Positions 535 through 25,499 of a DNA stretch of 27,323 nt are shown piece by piece. The notes under the pieces were generated by a model. That model worked only from the letters and a program-made list of their open reading frames with translations, searched no databases and was not told the origin of the DNA. A program made the position numbers and the translations under genes. How positions within the stretch are numbered: the stretch's first letter is position 1; each line of letters opens with the position of its first letter. Origin of the DNA: an uncultured Aquificales bacterium (lineage in GTDB: Bacteria > Thermosulfidibacterota > Thermosulfidibacteria > Thermosulfidibacterales > Thermosulfidibacteraceae); assembly GCA_964453345.1 (NCBI GenBank), contig CAYVOC010000002.1, positions 1-27,323 on the forward strand, written 5' to 3'.

Positions 535-1725
535 TTACAGCCTCAGATTCTCAATTATCATGGCTGAGCCCATGCCTCCGCCTTGACAGAGGGTGGCAAG
601 CCCATACTTCACCTTTCTCCTTATCATCTCGTAGATGAGGGTCACCACTATCCTGCAGCCTGTAGCTCCGACGGGGTGTCCCAAGGAGATGCCGGAGCCG
701 TTCACATTGGTTATGGAAAGGTCCAGTCCCAGCCCCTTTATGCAGGCAAGTGCCTGGGCTGCAAAGGCTTCATTCAACTCCACAAGCCCTATATCATCAA
801 GTTTCAACCCGGCTTTTTTCAAAGCCTTCTTGGTTGCGGGAACGGGTCCCCATCCCATTATTTCAGGAGGCACACCAACCACAGCACAGGAAACTATCCT
901 CGCCAACGGTTCAACCCCCAGCCTTTCCGCAACCTCCTCCCTCATTATCACCACAGCTGCAGCACCATCGTTTATGGCCGAGCTGTTTCCGGCGGTAACA
1001 GTTCCGTCCTTCTTGAAAACGGGGGGAAGCTTGGCGAGTTTCTCCAGTGTGGTATCCTCCCTGGGATGCTCGTCGGTGTCAAAGAGAAAGCTTCCCTTTT
1101 TGGTCTTCACCTCAACGGGCACTATCTCTTCCTTGAATTTGCCCTCCTTTATGGCCCGGACAGCCCTCATGTGGCTCTCGTAGGCCAGTCTATCCTGCTC
1201 CTCACGGGTTATGTTGTATTTCTCAGCCAGGTTCTCAGCGGTTACCCCCATGTGATAGTTACAGAAAGCACAAATCAACCCATCGTAAAGCATGTGATCA
1301 TAAAGGGTGTCGTTGAAGAGCCTGTATCCCCAGCGGGCCTTGGTGAGGATGTAGGGGGTGGCGCTCATGTTCTCCATGCCGCCTGCAACTATTATATCGG
1401 CGTCTCCCGCCACTATCTTGTGGGCACCGCAGGTTATGGCCCTCATGGCAGAGGCGCACTGGTTGTTCACGGTAAGCGCCGGCACCTCGTAGGGAAGCCC
1501 CGCCTTAACGGATGCCTGCCTTGCAGGATTGGCCCTCTGTCCCGCCTGAAAGATGTTGCCCATAATCACCTCATCAACGGTTTCGGGATCCACCTTCGCC
1601 CTCTTCAGAGCCTCCCTTATCACAGTGGCGCCCAGATCCACAGCGGGCACATCCTTTAAGCTTTTACCAAAGTCTCCTATAGGAGTTCTTACAGCGGAAA
1701 CTATCACCACGCTTTCAACACCCAT
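535..1725 (-). CDS. atoB: Acetyl-CoA C-acetyltransferase (thiolase)
   Basis: RTPIG, catalytic Cys in NNQCASA, VTAGNSSAINDGAA, NEAFA, GHPVGATG and LCQGGG motifs. Confidence 0.95.
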   Translation of the reverse strand: MGVESVVIVSAVRTPIGDFGKSLKDVPAVDLGATVIREALKRAKVDPETVDEVIMGNIFQAGQRANPARQASVKAGLPYEVPALTVNNQCASAMRAITCGAHKIVAGDADIIVAGGMENMSATPYILTKARWGYRLFNDTLYDHMLYDGLICAFCNYHMGVTAENLAEKYNITREEQDRLAYESHMRAVRAIKEGKFKEEIVPVEVKTKKGSFLFDTDEHPREDTTLEKLAKLPPVFKKDGTVTAGNSSAINDGAAAVVIMREEVAERLGVEPLARIVSCAVVGVPPEIMGWGPVPATKKALKKAGLKLDDIGLVELNEAFAAQALACIKGLGLDLSITNVNGSGISLGHPVGATGCRIVVTLIYEMIRRKVKYGLATLCQGGGMGSAMIIENLRL

Positions 1726-11976: not shown

Positions 11977-12049
11977 TGGCGGCGGAGGGATTCGAACCCC
12001 CGACCCGGCGCTTATGAGACGCCTGCTCTACCACCTGAGCTACGCCGCC
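11977..12049 (-). tRNA. tRNA with CAT anticodon, most likely elongator tRNA-Met; CCA not encoded
   Basis: GGCGGCG TA GCTC AGGTGGTA GAGC A GGCGT CTCATAA GCGCC GGGTC GGGGG TTCGAAT CCCTC CGCCGCC A folds into a full cloverleaf. G1-C72 is paired, so it is not an initiator. tRNA-Ile2 cannot be fully excluded. Confidence 0.93.
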
Positions 12050-12094: not shown

Positions 12095-13051
12095 CTATAT
12101 CTCCTCCCCCTGATAACAGCACTTGCAGGAGATCTTCTCTATCACCGAGTAGGGATCGATCCTTTTTTCAAACATCTCATTTATTATCTGGGAGTATAGC
12201 CCCTTCTCCTCCATTCTCTTGATCAGATCCTCCAGAAGTTTATCCTTCAGAAGCAGCAAAAAGAGATTCTCCAGCCTGTCCCTTCTGTAGCTCTCAAATC
12301 TGCCCGTCTTCTCAAGAAATCTTTTGTGTTCAAAGATGCCCTCGATCAGCTCGTCGAAGCCCTCATCCTTCATGGCGCTCACCTTGTAGACGGGCACCTT
12401 CCAGCCCTCTTCCCTTGGGGGACTCATATCAAGCATCACCTTCAACTCCCTGACGGTCTTATCCGCTTCAGGTTTATCGCCCTTGTTAACCACAAAGATG
12501 TCGGCAATCTCCAGAACCCCCGCCTTTATAGCCTGTATGTCATCTCCCAGGCCGGGAACGGTGACCACGATTGTGGTATCCGCCGTCTTGACTATGTCCA
12601 CCTCGTCCTGACCAACTCCAACGGTCTCAACGATGATTATGTCCATACCCATGGCATCCATGACCTGGATAACATCGTCGGTGCACTTGGCCAGCCCCCC
12701 CAAATGCCCCCTCGTGGCGAGGGACTTCACAAAAACACCCTCATCGAGGGAGTGATCCTGCATCCGGATCCTGTCACCAAGTATAGCGCCCCCGGAGAAG
12801 GGACTTGTGGGATCTATGGCAACCACTCCCACCTTATAGCCCCTCTTTCTGAGATGGGAGACCAGCTTGTTTATCATGGTGCTTTTGCCAGCCCCCGGAG
12901 GACCGGTGATCCCAAGAATATAGGCCCTGCCCGTGTAGGGATATATGCGCTTCAAAATCTCCTTACCTTCAGGATACTCATCCTCCACAAGCCTGATGGC
13001 CCTTGCAGCAGCCCTTCTATCCCCCTTAAGCAGCTTATCAATCAACCCCAT
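12095..13051 (-). CDS. meaB: MeaB/ArgK GTPase chaperone of adenosylcobalamin-dependent mutases
   Basis: GITGPPGAGKST, AIDPTSPFSGGAILGDRIRM, ETVGVGQDE, GDDIQAIKAG and NKGD. ATG 13051 has GAGGTG upstream; GTG 13060 is an alternative start. Confidence 0.96.
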   Translation of the reverse strand: MGLIDKLLKGDRRAAARAIRLVEDEYPEGKEILKRIYPYTGRAYILGITGPPGAGKSTMINKLVSHLRKRGYKVGVVAIDPTSPFSGGAILGDRIRMQDHSLDEGVFVKSLATRGHLGGLAKCTDDVIQVMDAMGMDIIIVETVGVGQDEVDIVKTADTTIVVTVPGLGDDIQAIKAGVLEIADIFVVNKGDKPEADKTVRELKVMLDMSPPREEGWKVPVYKVSAMKDEGFDELIEGIFEHKRFLEKTGRFESYRRDRLENLFLLLLKDKLLEDLIKRMEEKGLYSQIINEMFEKRIDPYSVIEKISCKCCYQGEEI

Positions 13052-13053
13052 CT

Positions 13054-13806
13054 TCAACACCTCGCAAGTATAGTGTAGATCTGATACTGACCAAACCCCT
13101 TGGCATCCATATCATAGGCTCTGTTGAGAAGGCTCTTTATAGCGGAAAGCCTTCCCCAGGATCTCAAGGCCACATTTTTGGCAAGCTCCCTCACCCTTTC
13201 GCCGAGTCTATCATGCTCCACAACCTCGTGAACGATCCCCAACTCAAGAGCCTCAGAAGCGGAAAGGATCCTCGCCGTGAAAAACATCTCCTTGGCCGCC
13301 CTCACTCCCACAAGCCTTCTTAAACGCTGGGTCCCACCAAAACCGGTTATTATCCCCATCTTGCATGCAGTATGGGCTATCTTCGCCCTGTCAGAAGCTA
13401 TCCTCAGATCACAGGCCATGGAAAAGTCAAAGCCACCGCCCATGCAATACCCGTCTATGGCGGCTATGATAACCTGAGGGACCCTTTCCATGGTGTTGAA
13501 AAGCTCGTGACCAAGATCACAAAACCAGAGGGCATCGTATTTATCAAAGGAGTCCAGCTCCTTTATATCCGCGCCCGCCACGAAAACCTTATCACCGGCG
13601 CTCTCAACCACCACAACCCTGATCCTTCTGTCGTATAGAAGGGATTTGAAGAAAAGGACAAGCTCCCTTAGGGTGTCAACGCTTAAGGTATTCATCTTTC
13701 GGGGGCGGTCTATGAAAAGGTAAGCAACCGCCCCCTCATACTCAACCTTTATGTTCTCAAAGGCTAAAGCTTGACGGGACGAGGTTTCACATTGTTTCTC
13801 ACCCAT
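13054..13806 (-). CDS. Enoyl-CoA hydratase/isomerase (crotonase) superfamily protein with non-canonical active site
   Basis: [15 protein letters not shown] oxyanion motif, [13 protein letters not shown] and [14 protein letters not shown] lies 8 nt before ATG 13806; 43-nt overlap with the upstream gene. Confidence 0.9.
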
Positions 13807-14180
13807 TCAACGATCTCCTCAAGGGGTGTTCCCGGAAGGAAGATCTCCTTAACCCCAACCTCCTTGAGCTTGGGAATATCATCAAGGGGGATAATGCCTC
13901 CCCCAAACACCACCACATCATCCAAGCCGGCCTCCTTAAGCTTCTGCATCAAGGTGGGAAAGACATACATGTGGGCCCCAGAAAGGATACTTATGCCGAT
14001 GGCGTCAACGTCCTCCTCAAGAGCCGCCTGGACGATCTGATCTATGGACTGGTGAAGCCCGGTATAGATAACCTCAAAACCCGCATCCCTCAAAGCCCTT
14101 GCCACAACCTTGGCTCCCCTGTCGTGCCCATCAAGACCCGGCTTGGCTATGAGTATTTTAACCTTCCTCTCCTGAGCCAT
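13764..14180 (-). CDS. icmB: Cobalamin-binding small subunit of the acyl-CoA mutase (IcmB/MCM C-terminal domain)
   Basis: [12 protein letters not shown] (DxHxxG), SILSGAH, GGIIP and FLPGT. Confidence 0.93.
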
Positions 14181-14203
14181 ACCCTACCTCCTCCAGAAAC
14201 TGG

Positions 14204-14974
14204 TTATTTAAACTCCAGATCCCTAACCCCATCAGGGTCTATTCTTCTTATAAACTCAAGCTCCTGCTCCGTGGGGGGGTCGGTGGTCGGAACCTCATCC
14301 GGAACGATCAGCTCAAAGCCGGTATTGCTGATCACATCCTCAAGACTGACTCCGGGGTGAAGAGAGACCAGCCTCATCCTCTTAGTCTTGGGCTCAAAGT
14401 CCATAACACACAGATTGGTGATAACCTTCCTCGGACCCCCCTTGGGTATCCCAAGCCTCTCCCTGGTATCCCACCCGTTTATGTATCCCTGACCGGTTAT
14501 GAACCCCACCTTCTCCACAAAAACCCTGCTGCTGTGCCTTGGAACCCATATAACCGTCTCCATAAAGGCGCAAAGATAGGCGGATGCCGCACCACCGGGC
14601 AACCTGACCTTGGGCCTCTCATAGCTACCTATAACGCTCAAATTCGTATTGCCATACATGTCAACCTGCGCCGCTCCCAAAAATATCAGGTCAAGCTCCC
14701 CTCTCTGGGCCAGGTCAAAGACCTCGGCCAGGGGAACATAGGCCACACAGTTCTCCTGGAGTTTTGGAGCAGCAGTTGAAAAGGGCACCTTTGAAGGGGA
14801 AGGATCCACAGCGTCCGCCGTGTTGAAGTAGACCATGTTGGGAGCGTGGGTGTTCTTGGCGAGAAGACAGGCTATCATGGGCATGGGGGAGTAGAGTCCC
14901 TGAAGGACCCTGTCCCCATCCCTTATCTCCCTTGCCATAAGGCTTATCATAAGTTCACTCACGGTGTATTCCAT
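14204..14974 (-). CDS. Family I CoA-transferase-fold beta subunit (GctB/AibB/IpdB-like), catalytic Glu absent
   Basis: LGAAQVDMYGNTNLSVIG.Y..PKVRLPGG, VITNLCVMDF, LHPGV and NTGFEL. Confidence 0.9.
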   Translation of the reverse strand: MEYTVSELMISLMAREIRDGDRVLQGLYSPMPMIACLLAKNTHAPNMVYFNTADAVDPSPSKVPFSTAAPKLQENCVAYVPLAEVFDLAQRGELDLIFLGAAQVDMYGNTNLSVIGSYERPKVRLPGGAASAYLCAFMETVIWVPRHSSRVFVEKVGFITGQGYINGWDTRERLGIPKGGPRKVITNLCVMDFEPKTKRMRLVSLHPGVSLEDVISNTGFELIVPDEVPTTDPPTEQELEFIRRIDPDGVRDLEFK

Positions 14975-14978
14975 GGCA

Positions 14979-15788
14979 CTATCCCTTAAGCACGTATTTT
15001 TTCAAATATTCCTCAAAGCCCTCGGGGGTCTTTGAAAGCTTAGCATACTCCTTTATGTGCCCATCATCAGAATCGTAGTATCCGTCGCAGGATGTGGGAT
15101 ACGCCCCCTTGGGTGCGTGAACAACCGCGCTCACGTAAAAGTATGGGATCGTTGTGGCATGGGGATTCGCCTTTATTTCCTCATGAGGAATTATCTCCTC
15201 CACGCTGACTATAACCTTCTTAGCCCCCTTGGCCATGTATACGTCTTCCCAGGGAGATCCCAGAAGCTGAACATTCCCATATTCATCGGCCCTGTGGGCG
15301 TGGATGAGGGCAACATCCGGATTCAAGGCCTTAACGAGAACCATCTTCTCCCCTGTGAAGGGGCAGATGAACTCCTTTATGGTCTTGCTGTGCCTCAAAA
15401 CATCCGAACCTATCATCCCCTTAACGGGAATGCACGGAATTCCCATGGCAGAAGCCCTTATGGAGTTTATTATCGTGCCGCAGGCATGCTCATCCAGCTC
15501 TATCTCCCCGGCTTCCGCCTTCCTCCTGAAATTAGGAGCAAGGCCAAACTCCTCCAAGGAGACAAGGGCAAAGGAAACCTTTTTGACACAGCCCGCACCT
15601 ATAAGCATATCGAAGTCCATTCCCTTCTCACGGCCAAGGATATGCAGATCCCTTTTGTTCTGCCTTATCACTTCCCTAACCAGCTCCATGGGGCAACGAT
15701 TCCTGCCCACCCCGCCTATGGCAACAACATCCCCGTCTGATACAAACCTGCTTACGGCCTCAGAAAGATCCATCAACCTTCTCTCCAT
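14979..15788 (-). CDS. Family I CoA-transferase-fold alpha subunit (GctA/AibA/IpdA-like)
   Basis: DGDVVAIGG, DMLIGAGCV, CPFTGE, PDVALIHAHRADEYGN and VSVEEI. Start moved to ATG 15788 (MERRL), just downstream of the mutase stop. Confidence 0.9.
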   Translation of the reverse strand: MERRLMDLSEAVSRFVSDGDVVAIGGVGRNRCPMELVREVIRQNKRDLHILGREKGMDFDMLIGAGCVKKVSFALVSLEEFGLAPNFRRKAEAGEIELDEHACGTIINSIRASAMGIPCIPVKGMIGSDVLRHSKTIKEFICPFTGEKMVLVKALNPDVALIHAHRADEYGNVQLLGSPWEDVYMAKGAKKVIVSVEEIIPHEEIKANPHATTIPYFYVSAVVHAPKGAYPTSCDGYYDSDDGHIKEYAKLSKTPEGFEEYLKKYVLKG

Positions 15789-15801
15789 CAAACAACCCCC
15801 G

Positions 15802-17514
15802 TTAGAAGAATGCGGGGTCCTTATACTCACCAAAGACATCCTTCATGGCGTTGCAGATCTCACCTATGGATGCGTATTCCCTGACCAGATCTATGATTAT
15901 GGGCATGACGTTCTCCTTCTCGTCCTTACAGGCATCCCTCAGGTCATCGAGCAGCCTCTTCACCTTGGCGTTGTCACGCTTGCGTCTCACCTCGTTGAGT
16001 CTCTCAATCTGCACCCTCTCAACCTCGGGATCTATTTTCAGGATCTCTATGGGCAGATCGTGCTCCTCACCCATCACAAACTCATTAACTCCCACAATGA
16101 TCTTTTCCTTGTTCTCAACCGCCTGCTGGAAGCGGAAGGCGGACTCTGTTATCTCCCTCTGCGGATACCCCTTCTTGATGGCCTCAAGCATGCCGCCCAT
16201 CTCCTCTATCTTGTAGATATACTCCCAGGCCTTTTCCTCTATCTGATTGGTCAAAGCCTCCACGAAGTAGGAGCCGGCAAGGGGATCTATGGTGTTGGTT
16301 ATGCCCGACTCATAGGCGATGATCTGCTGGGTTCTTGTGGCAACGGTGACAGCTTCCTCTGTGGGAAGGGCCCACGTCTCGTCCATGGAGTTGGTGTGCA
16401 GCGACTGGGTTCCTCCAAGCACCGCCGCCATGGCCTCTATGGTGGTTCTAACAATGTTATTGAGGGGCTGCTGGGCCGTGAGGGAGCATCCAGCAGTCTG
16501 GGTGTGGAACCTCATCCACCAGGATCTGGGGTTCTTGGCGCCGAACCACTCCTTCATGATCTTGGCCCACATGCGGCGGGCTGCACGGAACTTGGCTATC
16601 TCCTCAAAGAAGTCCATGTGGCTGTCGAAGAAGAAGGAGTATCTGGGGGCAAAGGCGTCCACATCAAGACCGGCGTTTATCCCCATTCTCACATACTCAA
16701 TGCCATCGGCCAGGGTGAAGGCGAGCTCCTGAACGGCCGTGGCCCCCGCCTCCCTTATGTGATAGCCGGAGATGGAGATGGTGTTCCACTTAGGAACATG
16801 GTGGGTGCAGTAAACCACTATATCCCTGACAAGTCTCAGCGAGGGTTCGGGAGGATAGATCCAGGTCTTCTGTGCGATGAACTCCTTGAGCATGTCGTTT
16901 TGCACGGTGCCGCCTATTTTGTCCTGGGAAACCCCCTGCTTCTCGGCGCAGACGATATACATGGCTAGAAGAACGATGGCGGGGGGATTTATGGTCATGG
17001 AGGTAGTGATCTTGTCCATGGGGATGCCGTCAAAGATGATCTCAAAGTCCTTCAGGGTATCCACGGCAACACCGCATTTGCCAACCTCGCCCCTCGCCAT
17101 GGGATCGTCGGAATCCCTCCCGTAGAGGGTGGGGAAGTCAAAGGCGATGGAGAGTCCCGTCTGGCCTATGGAGAGCAGATACTTATAGCGCTTGTTGGTC
17201 TGCTCCGGGGTTCCAAAGCCCGCAAACTGCCTGATGGTCCAGATCCTTCCGCGATACATGGTGGTGTGAACGCCGCGGGTGAAGGGGTATTCACCCGGAA
17301 AGCCCAGATCCCTCATGTAGTCAAAATCTTTAATATCTTCAGGCGTGTAAACCCTCTTTATCTCCAAGTCAGACAGGGAATAGAACTTCTCCTTTCTCTC
17401 CGGGTGTTTCGCCATTTCCTTAGCGAGGGGACCCTGCTCCCACCTCTCCCTTTCCCTTGTTATCTCTTCAATGGCCTCATCGTTGAAGAGCCTGTTTTTC
17501 GCCTTCACCTCCAT
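15802..17514 (-). CDS. icmA: Adenosylcobalamin-dependent acyl-CoA mutase large subunit (methylmalonyl-CoA mutase family, isobutyryl-CoA mutase type)
   Basis: [49 protein letters not shown] and [10 protein letters not shown]; specificity residues are F97/Q215. Confidence 0.92.
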
Positions 17515-17539
17515 GACAAACCTCCAAAAGCTAAAGTTT

Positions 17540-18076
17540 TTATCTTTCTATGCCGTCTCTCGCATCAACGCCCTTCTCTGCGTAATAGTGCCTCACCTCT
17601 ATCATCTCGGTGACAAGATCCGCCCTTTTGACCACCTCGGGATGGGCGTAGCGACCTGTCATCACAAGCTCCATGTCCTCAGGCTTCTTCTCCATAAGCT
17701 CAAGGACCTGCTCCAGCTTAACAAGCCCAAAATCCAGAGCCACGTTTATCTCATCAAGGATCAGAATGTCATGTTCATTCTTTTCCATAATCTTCCTGGC
17801 CAGCTCCAGCCCCTTCTGGGCAAGCTCTATGTCCTTGGGATCCGGGTTGTTCCTATCCACAAACTCCTCCCTGCCCATCTGAACGATGGTGACGTAGGGA
17901 GACAGCATCTCAGCAGTCTTCAACTCCCCGTAAAAGATGCTTCCCTTCATAAACTGAATGATAAAGACCCTCATCCCGTGCCCCACCGCCCTGAAGGCAA
18001 GTCCCAAGGCAGCGGTGGTTTTGCCCTTGCCGTCCCCGGTGTAAACCTGTATGTAGCCCTTCTTCAGCTTCTTCAT
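17540..18076 (-). CDS. cobO: Cob(I)alamin / cob(I)yrinate a,c-diamide adenosyltransferase (BtuR/CobO/CobA type)
   Basis: [30 protein letters not shown] and ADLVTEM..V.HY. Confidence 0.95.
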
Positions 18077-19227
18077 GAGAGAATATTCCTCGCTATCACC
18101 AGCCTCTGGATCTCAGAGGTTCCCTCATAAAGGGTGGTGACCCTTATATCCCTGTAGTAGCGCTCAACGGGAAACTCCCTTGAGTATCCGTAGCCTCCGT
18201 GGACCTGAACGGCCCTGTATGCGGCCCTGTTGGCAGCCTCCGTTGCGAAGAGCTTCGCCATGGAGGCCTCCTTTGTGAACCTGCCGCCCTTTCCGGCAAG
18301 GAACAGATCCTTGAGCCAAGCAGCCCTCAGCACAAGGGCCTCCGCCGCCTCAAGCTCTGTGGCGGTGTCGGCTATCATCCACTGTATTGCCTGAAAGTTG
18401 GCTATGGGCTGACCGAACTGGACCCTGCCCTTGGAATACTTCACCATCTCCTCAAGGCAGGCCCTCATCACACCGCAGGCCAAAGCCCCTATGCCTATCC
18501 TTCCGCCGTCAAGATCGGCCAGCATGATCTTGAACCCATCCCCCTCGTTGCCCAGAAGGTTCTCGGCCGGGACCCTGCAGTCCTCAAAGACAAGCTCCAC
18601 GGTGTTGGAGCCGCGCTGTCCCATCTTCCTCTCTTCCTTGCCGATGGTGAGTCCCGGTGTATCCTTCTCAACAAGAAGGACGCTTATCCCCTTCTTGCCC
18701 TTGGATTTGTCTGTGACTGCGGCCACCATGATAACTCCGGCATAGGCGCCGCTGGTGATGAAGATCTTGCTTCCGTTTATCACATAGTGATCCCCATCCC
18801 TGACAGCGGTGGTCTTGATGCTCCCCGCATCTGACCCCGCCCAGGGCTCGGTGAGGGCAAAGGAAGCGGCCACGTATTCGCCTGAGGCTATCTTGGGGAG
18901 ATACTTTCTCCTCTGCTCTTCGTTGCCGAACCTCCATATACCCTCTGCAACCATGTTGGTGACCGACTGGGTAACGGCGATTGAAGCTGAAACCCTTGCA
19001 AGCTCCATTATGGCAAGGGCGAAGGCTATGGTGTCCATGCCGCTTCCGCCGTATTCGGTGGGGATGGTGATGGCGTTAAGCCCAAGTTGTGCAAGCTTTT
19101 TGTGGATCTCAACCGGGAAGAACTCCTCCTCGTCCATCTTCTCTGCAATGGGAGCTATCTCCTTTTCCGCAAACTCCCTGACCATGTTCTGAAGAAGCCT
19201 GTGCTCTTCCTTCAGTTCAAAATCCAT
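18073..19227 (-). CDS. Acyl-CoA dehydrogenase (short/branched-chain type)
   Basis: FALTEPWAGSD, NGSKIFIT, KMGQRGS, GRIGI, RVQFGQPI, QVHGGYGY and YEGTSEIQR (catalytic Glu present). Confidence 0.96.
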   Translation of the reverse strand: MDFELKEEHRLLQNMVREFAEKEIAPIAEKMDEEEFFPVEIHKKLAQLGLNAITIPTEYGGSGMDTIAFALAIMELARVSASIAVTQSVTNMVAEGIWRFGNEEQRRKYLPKIASGEYVAASFALTEPWAGSDAGSIKTTAVRDGDHYVINGSKIFITSGAYAGVIMVAAVTDKSKGKKGISVLLVEKDTPGLTIGKEERKMGQRGSNTVELVFEDCRVPAENLLGNEGDGFKIMLADLDGGRIGIGALACGVMRACLEEMVKYSKGRVQFGQPIANFQAIQWMIADTATELEAAEALVLRAAWLKDLFLAGKGGRFTKEASMAKLFATEAANRAAYRAVQVHGGYGYSREFPVERYYRDIRVTTLYEGTSEIQRLVIARNILS

Positions 19228-19263: not shown

Positions 19264-19292
19264 ATCTTAAACGAAGGATAAAACTTTTTCAA
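19264..19292 (-). promoter_or_regulatory. Putative sigma70 promoter of the acyl-CoA/B12 operon
   Basis: TTGAAA (19292-19287), 17 nt spacer, TAAGAT (19269-19264); GGAGG SD before ATG 19227. Confidence 0.55.
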
Positions 19293-19371: not shown

Positions 19372-19683
19372 ATGCCTATCTACGAGTTTAGATGCGAAAG
19401 ATGCGGGCGCATCAGGGAAGTTATTGTCTTAGGGGGCACCTGTCAGCCTCCCACGTGCGAGCAGTGCGGCATAGCCATGAAGCGCATCATGTCCCCCTTC
19501 GCCTACAACCCCGACAGAACCTCGGAAAGGGAAAGCAGGGTTATGAAACTCGCCTCCGACTACCTCAAGGACGGCAAGGTAAAGGACGCTGCAAGGTTCC
19601 TCAAGAAGGCCGAAGAGCACCTGAAAACGGACACCATAAAAAGGGCATCGGAAGCCCTCAATAAGGCCGTATCAGATAAGTAA
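19372..19683 (+). CDS. FmdB-family zinc-ribbon protein
   Basis: MPIYEFRCERCG...CEQCG...MKRIMS; AGGAGG SD upstream. Confidence 0.88.
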   Translation: MPIYEFRCERCGRIREVIVLGGTCQPPTCEQCGIAMKRIMSPFAYNPDRTSERESRVMKLASDYLKDGKVKDAARFLKKAEEHLKTDTIKRASEALNKAVSDK

Positions 19684-19710: not shown

Positions 19711-20283
19711 CTATCCCATGAGGAAGAAGATCCCTGCCGCAACCATCCCGGAGCCTACGGCCCTTATGGCCCAAAGCCCAATTTTGCTGTTCTGGAATCT
19801 CTTAACAAAGGCAACCCCGGAAAAGTGCAGAAAGGCCGTAGAGATAATCATGCCCATCATAAAGGCCACAGGCCTTGCGCCTGCCTCAAGTCCGTGGGCA
19901 AGACCGTGGAACAGCCCAAAGCCCGCTACAAGAATCATCCCCGCCACAAGGGGCAGACTCACCCTCAGGGCAACGAGGGCGCCAAGAACAGCCACGGAAA
20001 GGGCAATCACGGTCTCAACCGGGCCAAAGCTCACCTTCATAAGCCCCAGAATCCCACCAGCGGTCAAGGCGGACACGAAGGCGGCTGGAAGAAACCAGAC
20101 GGCCCTCCCCTCTTTAACCCTTGCGGCAAGCATACCCACGGCAACCATGGCAAGCAGATGATCAAGTCCGGTAAAGGGATGAAGCAATCCGCCGGTAAAC
20201 CCGTTGTTATGTCCGGGATGGGCAAAGGCCAACTGAGGGATAAGAACCAATCCTAAAGGCAAAAGCCTTCTTAAAACCCTCAT
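19711..20283 (-). CDS. hupE: HupE/UreJ family Ni/Co transporter
   Basis: Signal peptide ending AFA|HPGH, HPFTGLDHLLAMVAVG, FHGLAHG and multiple TM helices; GGAGG SD. Confidence 0.93.
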   Translation of the reverse strand: MRVLRRLLPLGLVLIPQLAFAHPGHNNGFTGGLLHPFTGLDHLLAMVAVGMLAARVKEGRAVWFLPAAFVSALTAGGILGLMKVSFGPVETVIALSVAVLGALVALRVSLPLVAGMILVAGFGLFHGLAHGLEAGARPVAFMMGMIISTAFLHFSGVAFVKRFQNSKIGLWAIRAVGSGMVAAGIFFLMG

Positions 20284-25166: not shown

Positions 25167-25499
25167 TTACTTGTGGCAGCCCTTACAGCTTCTGGGCCCT
25201 GCGTGCTTGGCCTTGTGGCAGCCCTTACACTGCTTGTGGAAGGCCTTCATGGCCTTGGGAGCCTTCCCCTTCTTGCAACCGTGGCAGGTGAAGCAGTTGC
25301 GAGGCTCACCCTGTCCACTCCACTTGTGGTGGCAGGTCTTACACTCAAACTTCTTGGAGTGGGCCTCATGATTGAAGGTAACTGCAGCCTTCCTCTTCTG
25401 GCACTTATCAATCTTCACCACAGTAGGAGCCTTGGCAAAGGAAACGGCAGACACAGCCATAAAGGCACATGCGGCAACGATGGCTAAAAGCTTCCTCAT
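25167..25499 (-). CDS. Tetrahaem class III cytochrome c (cytochrome c3), periplasmic
   Basis: Sec signal (SFA|), VTFNHEAH, four CxxCH motifs (CKTCHH, CFTCH, CKGCH twice), AFH distal ligand, Lys-rich; AGGAGG SD. Confidence 0.93.
   Translation of the reverse strand: MRKLLAIVAACAFMAVSAVSFAKAPTVVKIDKCQKRKAAVTFNHEAHSKKFECKTCHHKWSGQGEPRNCFTCHGCKKGKAPKAMKAFHKQCKGCHKAKHAGPRSCKGCHK

Follow-up and report, generated by a model that had tools for sequence, protein, structure and literature searches.

A B12-dependent acyl-CoA operon of Thermosulfidibacter-like bacteria with an isobutyryl-CoA mutase-type large subunit, a glutamate-less transferase-like pair and an Asp/Ala crotonase

We analyzed a stretch of 27,323 nucleotides (the window) from an uncultured Aquificales bacterium placed in the Thermosulfidibacteraceae (GenBank assembly GCA_964453345.1, contig CAYVOC010000002.1, positions 1 to 27,323), a hot-vent bacterium with a genome of 1.51 Mb that is 99.9% complete. 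Eight consecutive minus-strand open reading frames (ORFs) at 12095-19227 form an operon for vitamin B12 (cobalamin)-dependent metabolism of coenzyme A (CoA) esters. The closest named homologs of its proteins are from Thermosulfidibacter takaii: the crotonase-fold protein has a 67% identical ortholog in the cultured strain ABI70S6, and the mutase large subunit is 84% identical to that of a metagenome-assembled genome (MAG) labelled T. takaii. From the ORF listing and from Pfam and NCBIfam searches, the genes in order of transcription are:

18073..19227, minus strand: acyl-CoA dehydrogenase (ACAD), 384 aa, butyryl-CoA/short-chain type (Pfam ACAD N, M and C domains)
17540..18076, minus strand: ATP:cob(I)alamin adenosyltransferase (ATR), CobA/BtuR type, 178 aa (PF02572, E 1.3e-65; TIGR00708, 173 bits vs cut-off 167.75)
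15802..17514, minus strand: mutase large subunit (MutL), 570 aa, with Phe97/Ala124/Gln215 (PF01642, 780 bits)
14979..15839, minus strand: CtA, GctA/AibA/IpdA-like alpha subunit of CoA_trans fold, annotated at 286 aa (PF01144, E 2.2e-36); probable start Met18 at 15788, giving 269 aa
14204..14974, minus strand: CtB, GctB/AibB/IpdB-like beta subunit, 256 aa, with Thr52, Asp54 and 'GGAA' (alignments, reciprocal profile searches)
13764..14180, minus strand: mutase small B12-binding subunit (MutS), 138 aa, with 'DGHDRG' (PF02310; TIGR00640, 174 bits)
13054..13806, minus strand: crotonase-fold protein (ECH), 250 aa, with Asp127/Ala147 and a short C-terminus (PF00378)
12095..13060, minus strand: MeaB G-protein chaperone, 321 aa, GTG start (PF03308, 338 bits; TIGR00750, 385 vs cut-off 240.75)

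The CoA_trans pair CtA/CtB thus lies between the genes for the two mutase subunits. Adjacent genes overlap (by 4, 38, 43 and 7 nt) or are separated by gaps of 25, 4 and 23 nt, confirming the eight genes, their order and the tight spacing (overlaps, or gaps of at most 25 nt) put forward in an original prediction made from the sequence alone. CtA probably starts at Met18, since its homologs are 271 aa long; this start would turn the 38-nt overlap into a 13-nt gap. Our regular-expression classification of alpha subunits was unreliable, and was drawn on solely for the 'EHAC' motif and the Met18 start. The ECH gene overlaps the end of the MutS gene by 43 nt (13764-13806), and a similar overlap of 40 nt recurs in one related locus (L090; here and below G, C and L numbers denote genomes, contigs and loci), suggesting translational coupling of the two genes.

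In MutL, 'RQFAGF' stands opposite 'RQYAGF' of human methylmalonyl-CoA mutase (MCM), and 'FIAQKT' opposite its 'FMVRNT'; at the same sites 2-hydroxyisobutyryl-CoA mutase (HCM, PDB 4r3u) reads 'RQIAGF' and 'YMAQKE', and Ala124 of MutL stands opposite the Asp of the HCM motif 'STDFD'. The resulting triads are F97/A124/Q215 for MutL, Y/A/R for MCM and I/D/Q for HCM. We take the specificity positions to be Tyr89/Arg207 in MCM, where they presumably bind the substrate carboxylate, Phe80/Gln198 in isobutyryl-CoA mutase (ICM) and Ile90/Asp117 in HCM. MutL, with F97 and Q215, lacks the carboxylate-binding Tyr and Arg of MCM; it has Phe and Ala instead of the HCM Ile and Asp, and it carries the Phe and Gln of the ICM type, accompanied as in that type by a separate small subunit with the DxHxxG motif and by MeaB. 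The closest solved structure is HcmA (PDB 4R3U, 619 bits), which shares the split architecture and the Gln at the Arg207 site but has Ile and Asp where MutL has Phe97 and Ala124. The best reading of these residues is that MutL and MutS would interconvert isobutyryl-CoA and n-butyryl-CoA. The predicted Phe/Gln pair is therefore confirmed by alignment, and so is the view that this is not a plain methylmalonyl-CoA/propionate operon.

The same signature had also been called unusual, which it is not: Phe, Ala and Gln are found in 120 of the 120 best MutL homologs, including proteins labelled Thermodesulfobacteriota and several archaeal groups. Known ICM clusters have the same Phe/Gln signature, if the specificity rule assumed above holds; relative to them, the operon adds a Bcd-type ACAD, a Glu-less GctAB-like pair between the mutase subunits and an Asp/Ala crotonase, and its MutS and MeaB apparently work with another large subunit, of MCM type, as well. 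Split subunits, ATR and a MeaB-like chaperone are shared with the clusters represented by IcmA/IcmB of Streptomyces cinnamonensis and Slip_0757-0760 of Syntrophothermus lipocalidus (PMC5017805). That paper proposes, from comparative genomics, that anaerobic isobutyrate degradation is served by a cluster in which adenosyltransferase and a MeaB-like protein join the two ICM subunits, large and small; it notes isomerization of isobutyrate to butyrate in S. lipocalidus, and places relatives of the cluster in sulfate reducers (PMC5017805), so that the combination of ICM, ATR and MeaB was already described. Two metagenome loci encode mutase large subunits with other signatures, 'RQLAGF' with Leu (L130:9650-10417) and 'RLYSGF' with Arg (L140:13707-15386).

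Genome searches found no mutase-type small subunit other than MutS, which carries the His-on motif 'DGHDRG', and no MeaB other than that of the operon. There is nonetheless a second mutase large subunit, on contig C32 (G000 C32:1-8341, locus L085), with Tyr/Ala/Arg and hence of MCM type. Genes near it encode a biotin carrier protein, a carboxyltransferase and a methylmalonyl-CoA epimerase that scores above the NCBIfam cut-off, and the subunit has neither a small subunit nor a MeaB of its own. The predicted absence of epimerase and carboxyltransferase accordingly holds within the cluster, while both are encoded on C32 beside the Tyr/Arg subunit. We extended the search to 18 genomes of the Thermosulfidibacter-like phylum, the scope of all the conservation counts below. 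The MCM-type large subunit (54-66% identity) is present in all 18; each genome with a MutS match has one operon-type MutS, and MeaB occurs at most once. Because two large subunits are thus found with one MutS and one MeaB across the phylum, we infer that the MutS, MeaB and ATR of the operon work with large subunits of both types, ICM and MCM, and that MutS and MeaB probably also serve the C32 Tyr/Arg subunit. A third large subunit, 42-43% identical, is confined to G002 and G003 and is the only one with its own small subunit, which follows immediately (G002:C62:14652-16748, G003:C40:7651-9756). We know of no description of one B12-binding small subunit and one MeaB shared by two mutases, although no literature search was aimed at this point. 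In one locus, genes for the cobalamin nucleotide loop (CobT-like DBI_PRT, CobD, CobU; L004:10218-12740) follow MeaB and precede PilB/PilT genes, the same as those flanking the window operon.

CtB has altered both of the motifs expected of a family I CoA-transferase. Its segment 'YFNTADAV' places Thr52 opposite the Cys56 position of AibB, which is mutated in the aligned chain, and opposite Glu54 of GctB, the catalytic Glu of that CoA-transferase (PMC5380842), so the Glu is missing, as predicted. The glycine motif 'GSGG.ND' is likewise replaced, by 'GGAA', which aligns to Ala133/Gly134 of AibB; this AibB segment contacts the enolate, and Gly134 is described as the sole donor of a hydrogen bond to it (PMC7756340). 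We aligned 203 CtB-type sequences: the operon CtB itself, 82 locus ORFs and the 120 best homologs from the database. At the Glu site, 69 have E, 51 have G, 42 have V, 35 have T and 5 have A, with a gap in the remaining one. In the canonical group the frequencies of G127, S128, G129, G130, N132 and D133 are 0.90-1.00, and the Glu-less clade has 'GGAA' at 1.00. Compared with the canonical group, the 134 non-Glu sequences also share Trp143, His206 and Thr231, an extended C-terminus and a two-residue insertion ending in Ser29. In 118 of the 134, the second residue after the lost Glu is acidic, either Asp or Glu (in NTAD, NV[AS]D, SVAE and SGAEG); in CtB it is Asp54.

In a FastTree tree, all 69 canonical sequences fall in one clade (support 0.965) and 133 of the 134 Glu-less sequences in another (0.978). 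Reciprocal profiles, built from 28 Glu-less and 20 canonical sequences, gave 174-175 bits for AibB, 166 for GctB and 129-134 for IpdB with the Glu-less profile, and 107-109, 243 and 83-93 bits respectively with the canonical one. Tree and profile scores together group GctB with the canonical clade, and AibB and IpdB with the clade of the operon CtB. This supports the original interpretation as far as the pair is concerned, which shares its clade with the AibA/AibB decarboxylase and the IpdAB hydrolase. For CtA, the PDB matches are 1poi_A (158 bits), 5mzw_A (130) and 6coj_A (117). CtA has Cys where the variant chain 6coj_A has Ala, the latter presumably at the position of IpdA Glu105.

AibA/AibB of Myxococcus xanthus (PDB 5MZW-5N03) likewise has two subunits of GctAB fold, a substitution of the catalytic Glu (by Cys56B in AibB, by Thr52 in CtB) and a glycine motif altered at the enolate-contacting segment; the pair groups nearer AibB than GctB, and the Glu-less profile finds its best PDB match in AibB. 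The likeness has limits: CtB alone matches AibB at only about 120 bits, its Asp at +2 is not in AibB, and it has Thr at both positions aligned to Cys56B and Glu72B, the proton-relay residues of AibB (PMC7756340). IpdAB, the steroid ring-opening hydrolase (PDB 6CO6, 6CON), is a similarly Glu-less GctAB-like pair, with Gly57 in the beta subunit (PMC5380842), and it is nearer the Glu-less than the canonical profile, yet CtB matches it at only 92-97 bits. According to the same paper, IpdAB has no CoA-transferase activity and is encoded among ACADs, crotonases and thiolases (PMC5380842). From these residues and groupings, CtA/CtB is probably not a canonical CoA-transferase and probably catalyzes a non-transferase reaction; that it is a transferase seems unlikely.

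Other Glu-less pairs have varied neighborhoods. A paralogous pair in G004 and G005 has ACADs, a thiolase, an SDR and a crotonase as neighbors. Sediment-metagenome pairs of the 'SGAEG' type (L096, L130, L135) are, by Pfam, preceded by an acyl-CoA ligase and followed by a URO-D-like gene, and in L130 and L135 only, there are also an NMO-like gene, DUF169 and a second ligase. The recurrent cluster around this type comprises a ligase, an NMO-like flavoprotein, CtA, CtB, DUF169, a URO-D-like protein and a second ligase; seven further loci (L120, L134, L138, L143, L149, L152, L153) resemble it by gene sizes, Pfam annotation being limited to L096, L130 and L135. Pairs with the AibB-like 'AGAVG' motif (L010-L012) are accompanied by DUF2889, luciferase-like oxygenases, an SDR and a ligase, and the HMG-CoA synthase (3-hydroxy-3-methylglutaryl-CoA synthase) of an aib-like context was not found at these loci. 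Since a ligase is available in the 'SGAEG' and 'AGAVG' clusters, these pairs are likely downstream enzymes that need not activate the substrate. ESM Atlas returned generic family names only for CtB and the crotonase.

In alignment with a solved hydratase, the ECH segment 'GGGFD' stands opposite 'GGGCE' and 'HTACK' opposite 'QPEVG', putting Asp127 and Ala147 at the two catalytic Glu positions ('GGGxE', 'PE'), as had been predicted; a crotonase elsewhere in the genome, on contig C63, has both Glu. The five alignments listed for the ECH active site against PDB contained only canonical Glu/Glu hydratases. The altered site is conserved rather than decayed: operon orthologs from genera g1, g3, g4 and g7 (43-68% identity) without exception carry 'GGG[FC]D' and '[HQ]T[AG][CA]' and lack the usual C-terminal helices, so that ECH evolves faster than the other operon proteins with its altered site fixed. 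The best 120 ECH homologs divide into 101 with E/E and 19 with D/A or D/G; the latter are the closest matches (at least 48% identity), and all of them that are named or placed belong to this lineage. Judged from these alignments, ECH is not a hydratase; it is a narrowly distributed derivative of a short-chain hydratase. Nor does it reach the equivalog threshold for methylmalonyl-CoA decarboxylase (ScpB/YgfG): it scores 126.5 bits with model NF008506, where 257 are required, and this model takes nineteenth place in the list of crotonase models matched.

The best solved relatives of ACAD are of the butyryl-CoA dehydrogenase/short-chain acyl-CoA dehydrogenase (Bcd/SCAD) type (5ol2_C, 403 bits; 1jqi, 367; 1buc, 335), ahead of isovaleryl-CoA dehydrogenases (265-303 bits) and glutaryl-CoA dehydrogenase (268 bits). 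Its 'YEGTSEIQ' aligns to 'YEGTSEVQ' of the Bcd/SCAD structure, and we take the Glu of this C-terminal 'YEGT' motif to be the catalytic base. ACAD exceeded no NCBIfam equivalog cut-off, the best being AcrC (496 vs 640). A 53% identical paralog is encoded on contig C7 with a thiolase, EtfB, EtfA and a CCG FeS oxidoreductase; contig C16 of the same genome has a FadB-like/thiolase/FadE/ligase cluster, and contig C63 has the canonical Glu/Glu crotonase. In related genomes the electron-transfer genes adjoin the operon itself: EtfB, EtfA and the CCG FeS oxidoreductase lie directly upstream in L095, and an EtfA fragment and FeS oxidoreductase in L068. This suggests that ACAD works oxidatively, contrary to the reducing step in the original prediction.

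The gene combination recurs in relatives across the phylum, as the original prediction required of a real system; a literature search, mostly at listing and abstract level, found no published description of it. CtB is encoded in 13 of the 18 genomes and in 9 of the 10 high-quality ones, and a MutL at least 80% identical in 16, the exceptions being G006 and the 71%-complete G010. The full eight-gene form is found in G000, G017, G007 and G008 and is truncated by contig ends in G014, G015 and G009, so that it spans genera g1, g4 and g7 and two families. Where both operon ends lie inside the contig (G000, G002, G004, G006, G007, G008, G011, G013, G017), ACAD, ATR, MutS and MeaB are the constant core. 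Other parts vary. ECH is missing from the operon in G011, G002, G003, G004 and G005, that is, in 5 of the 16 genomes with a readable operon, among them 5 of the 13 having the pair. CtA/CtB is missing in G013 (L090), G012 (L094) and G016 (C269, C249), where MutL is followed directly by MutS; because three relatives lack the pair, one of them (G016) in the genus of the window genome, it was gained or lost at the MutL/MutS junction more than once. Conversely, G006 (L093, G006:C4, 5987-7483) has ACAD-ATR-CtA-CtB-MutS-MeaB, with 133 bp between ATR and CtA in place of MutL. Altogether the pair or ECH is missing in 9 of the 16 readable operons. The cassette is therefore not self-contained, contrary to what had been proposed: relatives lack the pair, ECH or the F/Q MutL, and MutS and MeaB appear to be shared with the MCM-type subunit.

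The boundaries of the unit are marked by the following features:

19641..19659, minus strand: terminator-like hairpin after the HupE/UreJ gene, at the upstream end of the unit (consensus match only)
19264..19292, minus strand: promoter-like -35/-10 pair (TTGAAA, 17 nt, TAAGAT) upstream of the first gene, ACAD (9/12 consensus positions; weak evidence)
11977..12049, minus strand: tRNA gene, at the downstream end of the unit (Rfam RF00005, 66.7 bits)

A single promoter had been predicted for the unit, and a site does lie upstream of its first gene; this is the weakest part of the observation, since the number of promoter-like sites in the region (6) matches chance (5.4 +/- 2.3 in shuffles) and two of the three minus-strand sites are within the operon. 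The tRNA was the only RNA element near the operon at Rfam gathering thresholds, which detected no cobalamin riboswitch. The gene directly upstream on the same strand (19711-20283, minus strand) encodes a HupE/UreJ-family membrane protein, of the nickel/cobalt transporter family. Elsewhere in the window are an acetoacetyl-CoA-type thiolase (535-1725, minus strand) and a class III (c3-type) cytochrome (25167-25499, minus strand), whose neighbors are the housekeeping genes dapA/B/F, lysA, argH, rpoD and dnaG.

Starting from gene content, residues, clade membership and conservation, we infer substrates, direction of flux, sharing of MutS and the reactions of the pair and the crotonase. Our preferred reading, which we hold tentatively as a whole, is of a phylum-conserved B12 operon with two jobs. 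One would be to supply ATR, MutS and MeaB to its own MutL and, most likely, to the C32 MCM-type large subunit. The other would be a short oxidative route: MutL and MutS would interconvert isobutyryl-CoA (from valine or isobutyrate) and n-butyryl-CoA; the Bcd-type ACAD would oxidize n-butyryl-CoA to crotonyl-CoA, passing electrons to Etf and the membrane FeS oxidoreductase; and crotonyl-CoA would go to acetyl-CoA by ordinary beta-oxidation. CtA/CtB would be an accessory module, most likely a cofactor-independent lyase acting on an acyl-CoA. Our preferred guess is that it decarboxylates a glutaconyl- or malonyl-type CoA ester, perhaps with Asp54 of CtB as proton donor, to a C4 acyl- or enoyl-CoA that would enter at the same node. 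The Asp/Ala crotonase would accompany the core as a second accessory enzyme. Having lost their textbook catalytic residues, both of these partners probably have a function still undescribed. A bolder version, possible though distinctly doubtful, would give the Thermosulfidibacterota a novel short-chain acyl-CoA node, in which a new lyase of the AibAB/IpdAB clade with a relocated carboxylate (Asp54 of the beta subunit) and a lineage-specific Asp-only crotonase would feed or draw on the crotonyl/butyryl/isobutyryl-CoA pool of the ICM-type mutase, for example by cofactor-free (de)carboxylation linking a C5 dicarboxylyl-CoA and a C4 acyl-CoA, with one MutS and one MeaB serving two large subunits.

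Several observations weigh against the preferred reading. The pair and the F/Q mutase need not be functionally coupled, since each occurs without the other in relatives, and these relatives, coming from one phylum, are not independent samples, so the counts describe a pattern and not a statistic. The Phe/Gln signature may also fit isovaleryl/pivalyl-CoA mutase activity. The Glu column that defines the clades is also inside the profiles, though it explains few of the 60-130-bit differences between them. No glutaconyl-CoA source was identified in the genome, where none of the three ACADs is specifically glutaryl-CoA-dehydrogenase-like. The remaining points concern the pair, which might still be a transferase if the conserved acid at +2 were a relocated nucleophile. 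On that explanation, which we judge unlikely though worth keeping in mind, the nucleophile has moved from site 52 to Asp54, the pair activates isobutyrate/butyrate, or propionate/succinate, and the operon is an uptake-to-crotonyl-CoA route for short branched acids. The retention of that acid across most Glu-less sequences would suit it; CtA/CtB are moreover the only CoA_trans-family proteins in the genome, and the operon has no ligase or other activating enzyme. In a MAG labelled Deltaproteobacteria (L007:3865-8771), a pair of NTAD type with 67% identity comes after prpB (for methylisocitrate lyase, which exceeds the NCBIfam cut-off) and PrpF/oxalomesaconate-tautomerase-like and PrpD-family genes, with no mutase, a context that would suit a propionate CoA-transferase. 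A CoA-transferase is encoded in the E. coli scpA-argK-scpB-scpC operon too. Transferase activity is however hard to square with the change of both motifs (Glu to Thr, GSGG to GGAA), with a clade that holds the characterized non-transferases AibB and IpdB and not GctB, and with the ligases that adjoin related pairs; nor is any family I CoA-transferase with a shifted nucleophile known to us. The lack of CoA-transferase activity in IpdAB points the same way (PMC5380842).

The route first proposed for this DNA is biosynthetic: the pair decarboxylates (methyl)glutaconyl-CoA, ACAD reduces the enoyl-CoA, the mutase rearranges the product (isovaleryl/pivalyl or butyryl/isobutyryl), and this primes iso-fatty acids. 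The resemblance of the pair to the AibA/AibB 3-methylglutaconyl-CoA decarboxylase favors it, and an Asp-type crotonase could conceivably isomerize a beta,gamma-enoyl product. We consider it improbable. The HMG-CoA synthase to which AibAB is linked in the aib operon is missing, in that PF08540 (the C domain, the only domain of that enzyme searched) had no match in the nearly complete genome; the AibC and TetR context of that operon is not seen here either, and M. xanthus uses that different reductase, AibC. ACAD is of Bcd/SCAD type with Glu in 'YEGT', not of isovaleryl-CoA dehydrogenase type; Etf and a quinone-linked FeS oxidoreductase beside the operon in relatives suggest oxidation; and the pair or crotonase is dispensable in over half of the readable operons. 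What stands of the original interpretation is thus a non-methylmalonyl operon with a non-transferase-like pair, a conserved crotonase site and recurrence; the unusual mutase and self-containment do not, and the reductive Aib-like route is weakened. Very improbable, in our estimate, is a succinate/propionate module in which the pair (by CoA transfer) and the crotonase (as a methylmalonyl-CoA decarboxylase like E. coli ScpB) work with the C32 MCM, the F/Q MutL being a second client of MutS. The E. coli sbm operon (scpA-argK-scpB-scpC), which encodes a mutase, MeaB/ArgK, a protein of CoA-transferase type and a crotonase-fold protein lacking both Glu, parallels ours in composition. Sharing of MutS and MeaB, the retention of pair, MutS and MeaB without F/Q MutL in G006, and the propionate-related context in L007 would agree with such a module. 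Yet MutL is Phe/Gln and not Tyr/Arg, the transferase-like protein is a Glu-less two-subunit GctAB type in a non-transferase clade, and ACAD and ATR are present; the crotonase falls far below the ScpB cut-off and is dispensable even where the pair is kept, and C32 already has epimerase, biotin carrier and carboxyltransferase.

A Phe/Gln mutase with ATR and MeaB being already known, interest centers on the pair without Glu, on the Asp-only crotonase and on a MutS that appears to be shared. Databases name homologs of the operon proteins 'methylmalonyl-CoA mutase', 'glutaconate CoA-transferase' and '3-hydroxybutyryl-CoA dehydratase', a likely mis-annotation that the present analysis corrects. The set of non-transferase proteins with the GctAB fold, AibAB and IpdAB, is extended to a large uncharacterized clade that makes up 134 of the 203 sequences sampled. 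The small, defined operon of a cultivable thermophile thus presents two enzyme types with conserved non-textbook active sites, and a case, open to testing, in which a single B12-binding subunit and a single chaperone may serve two mutases.

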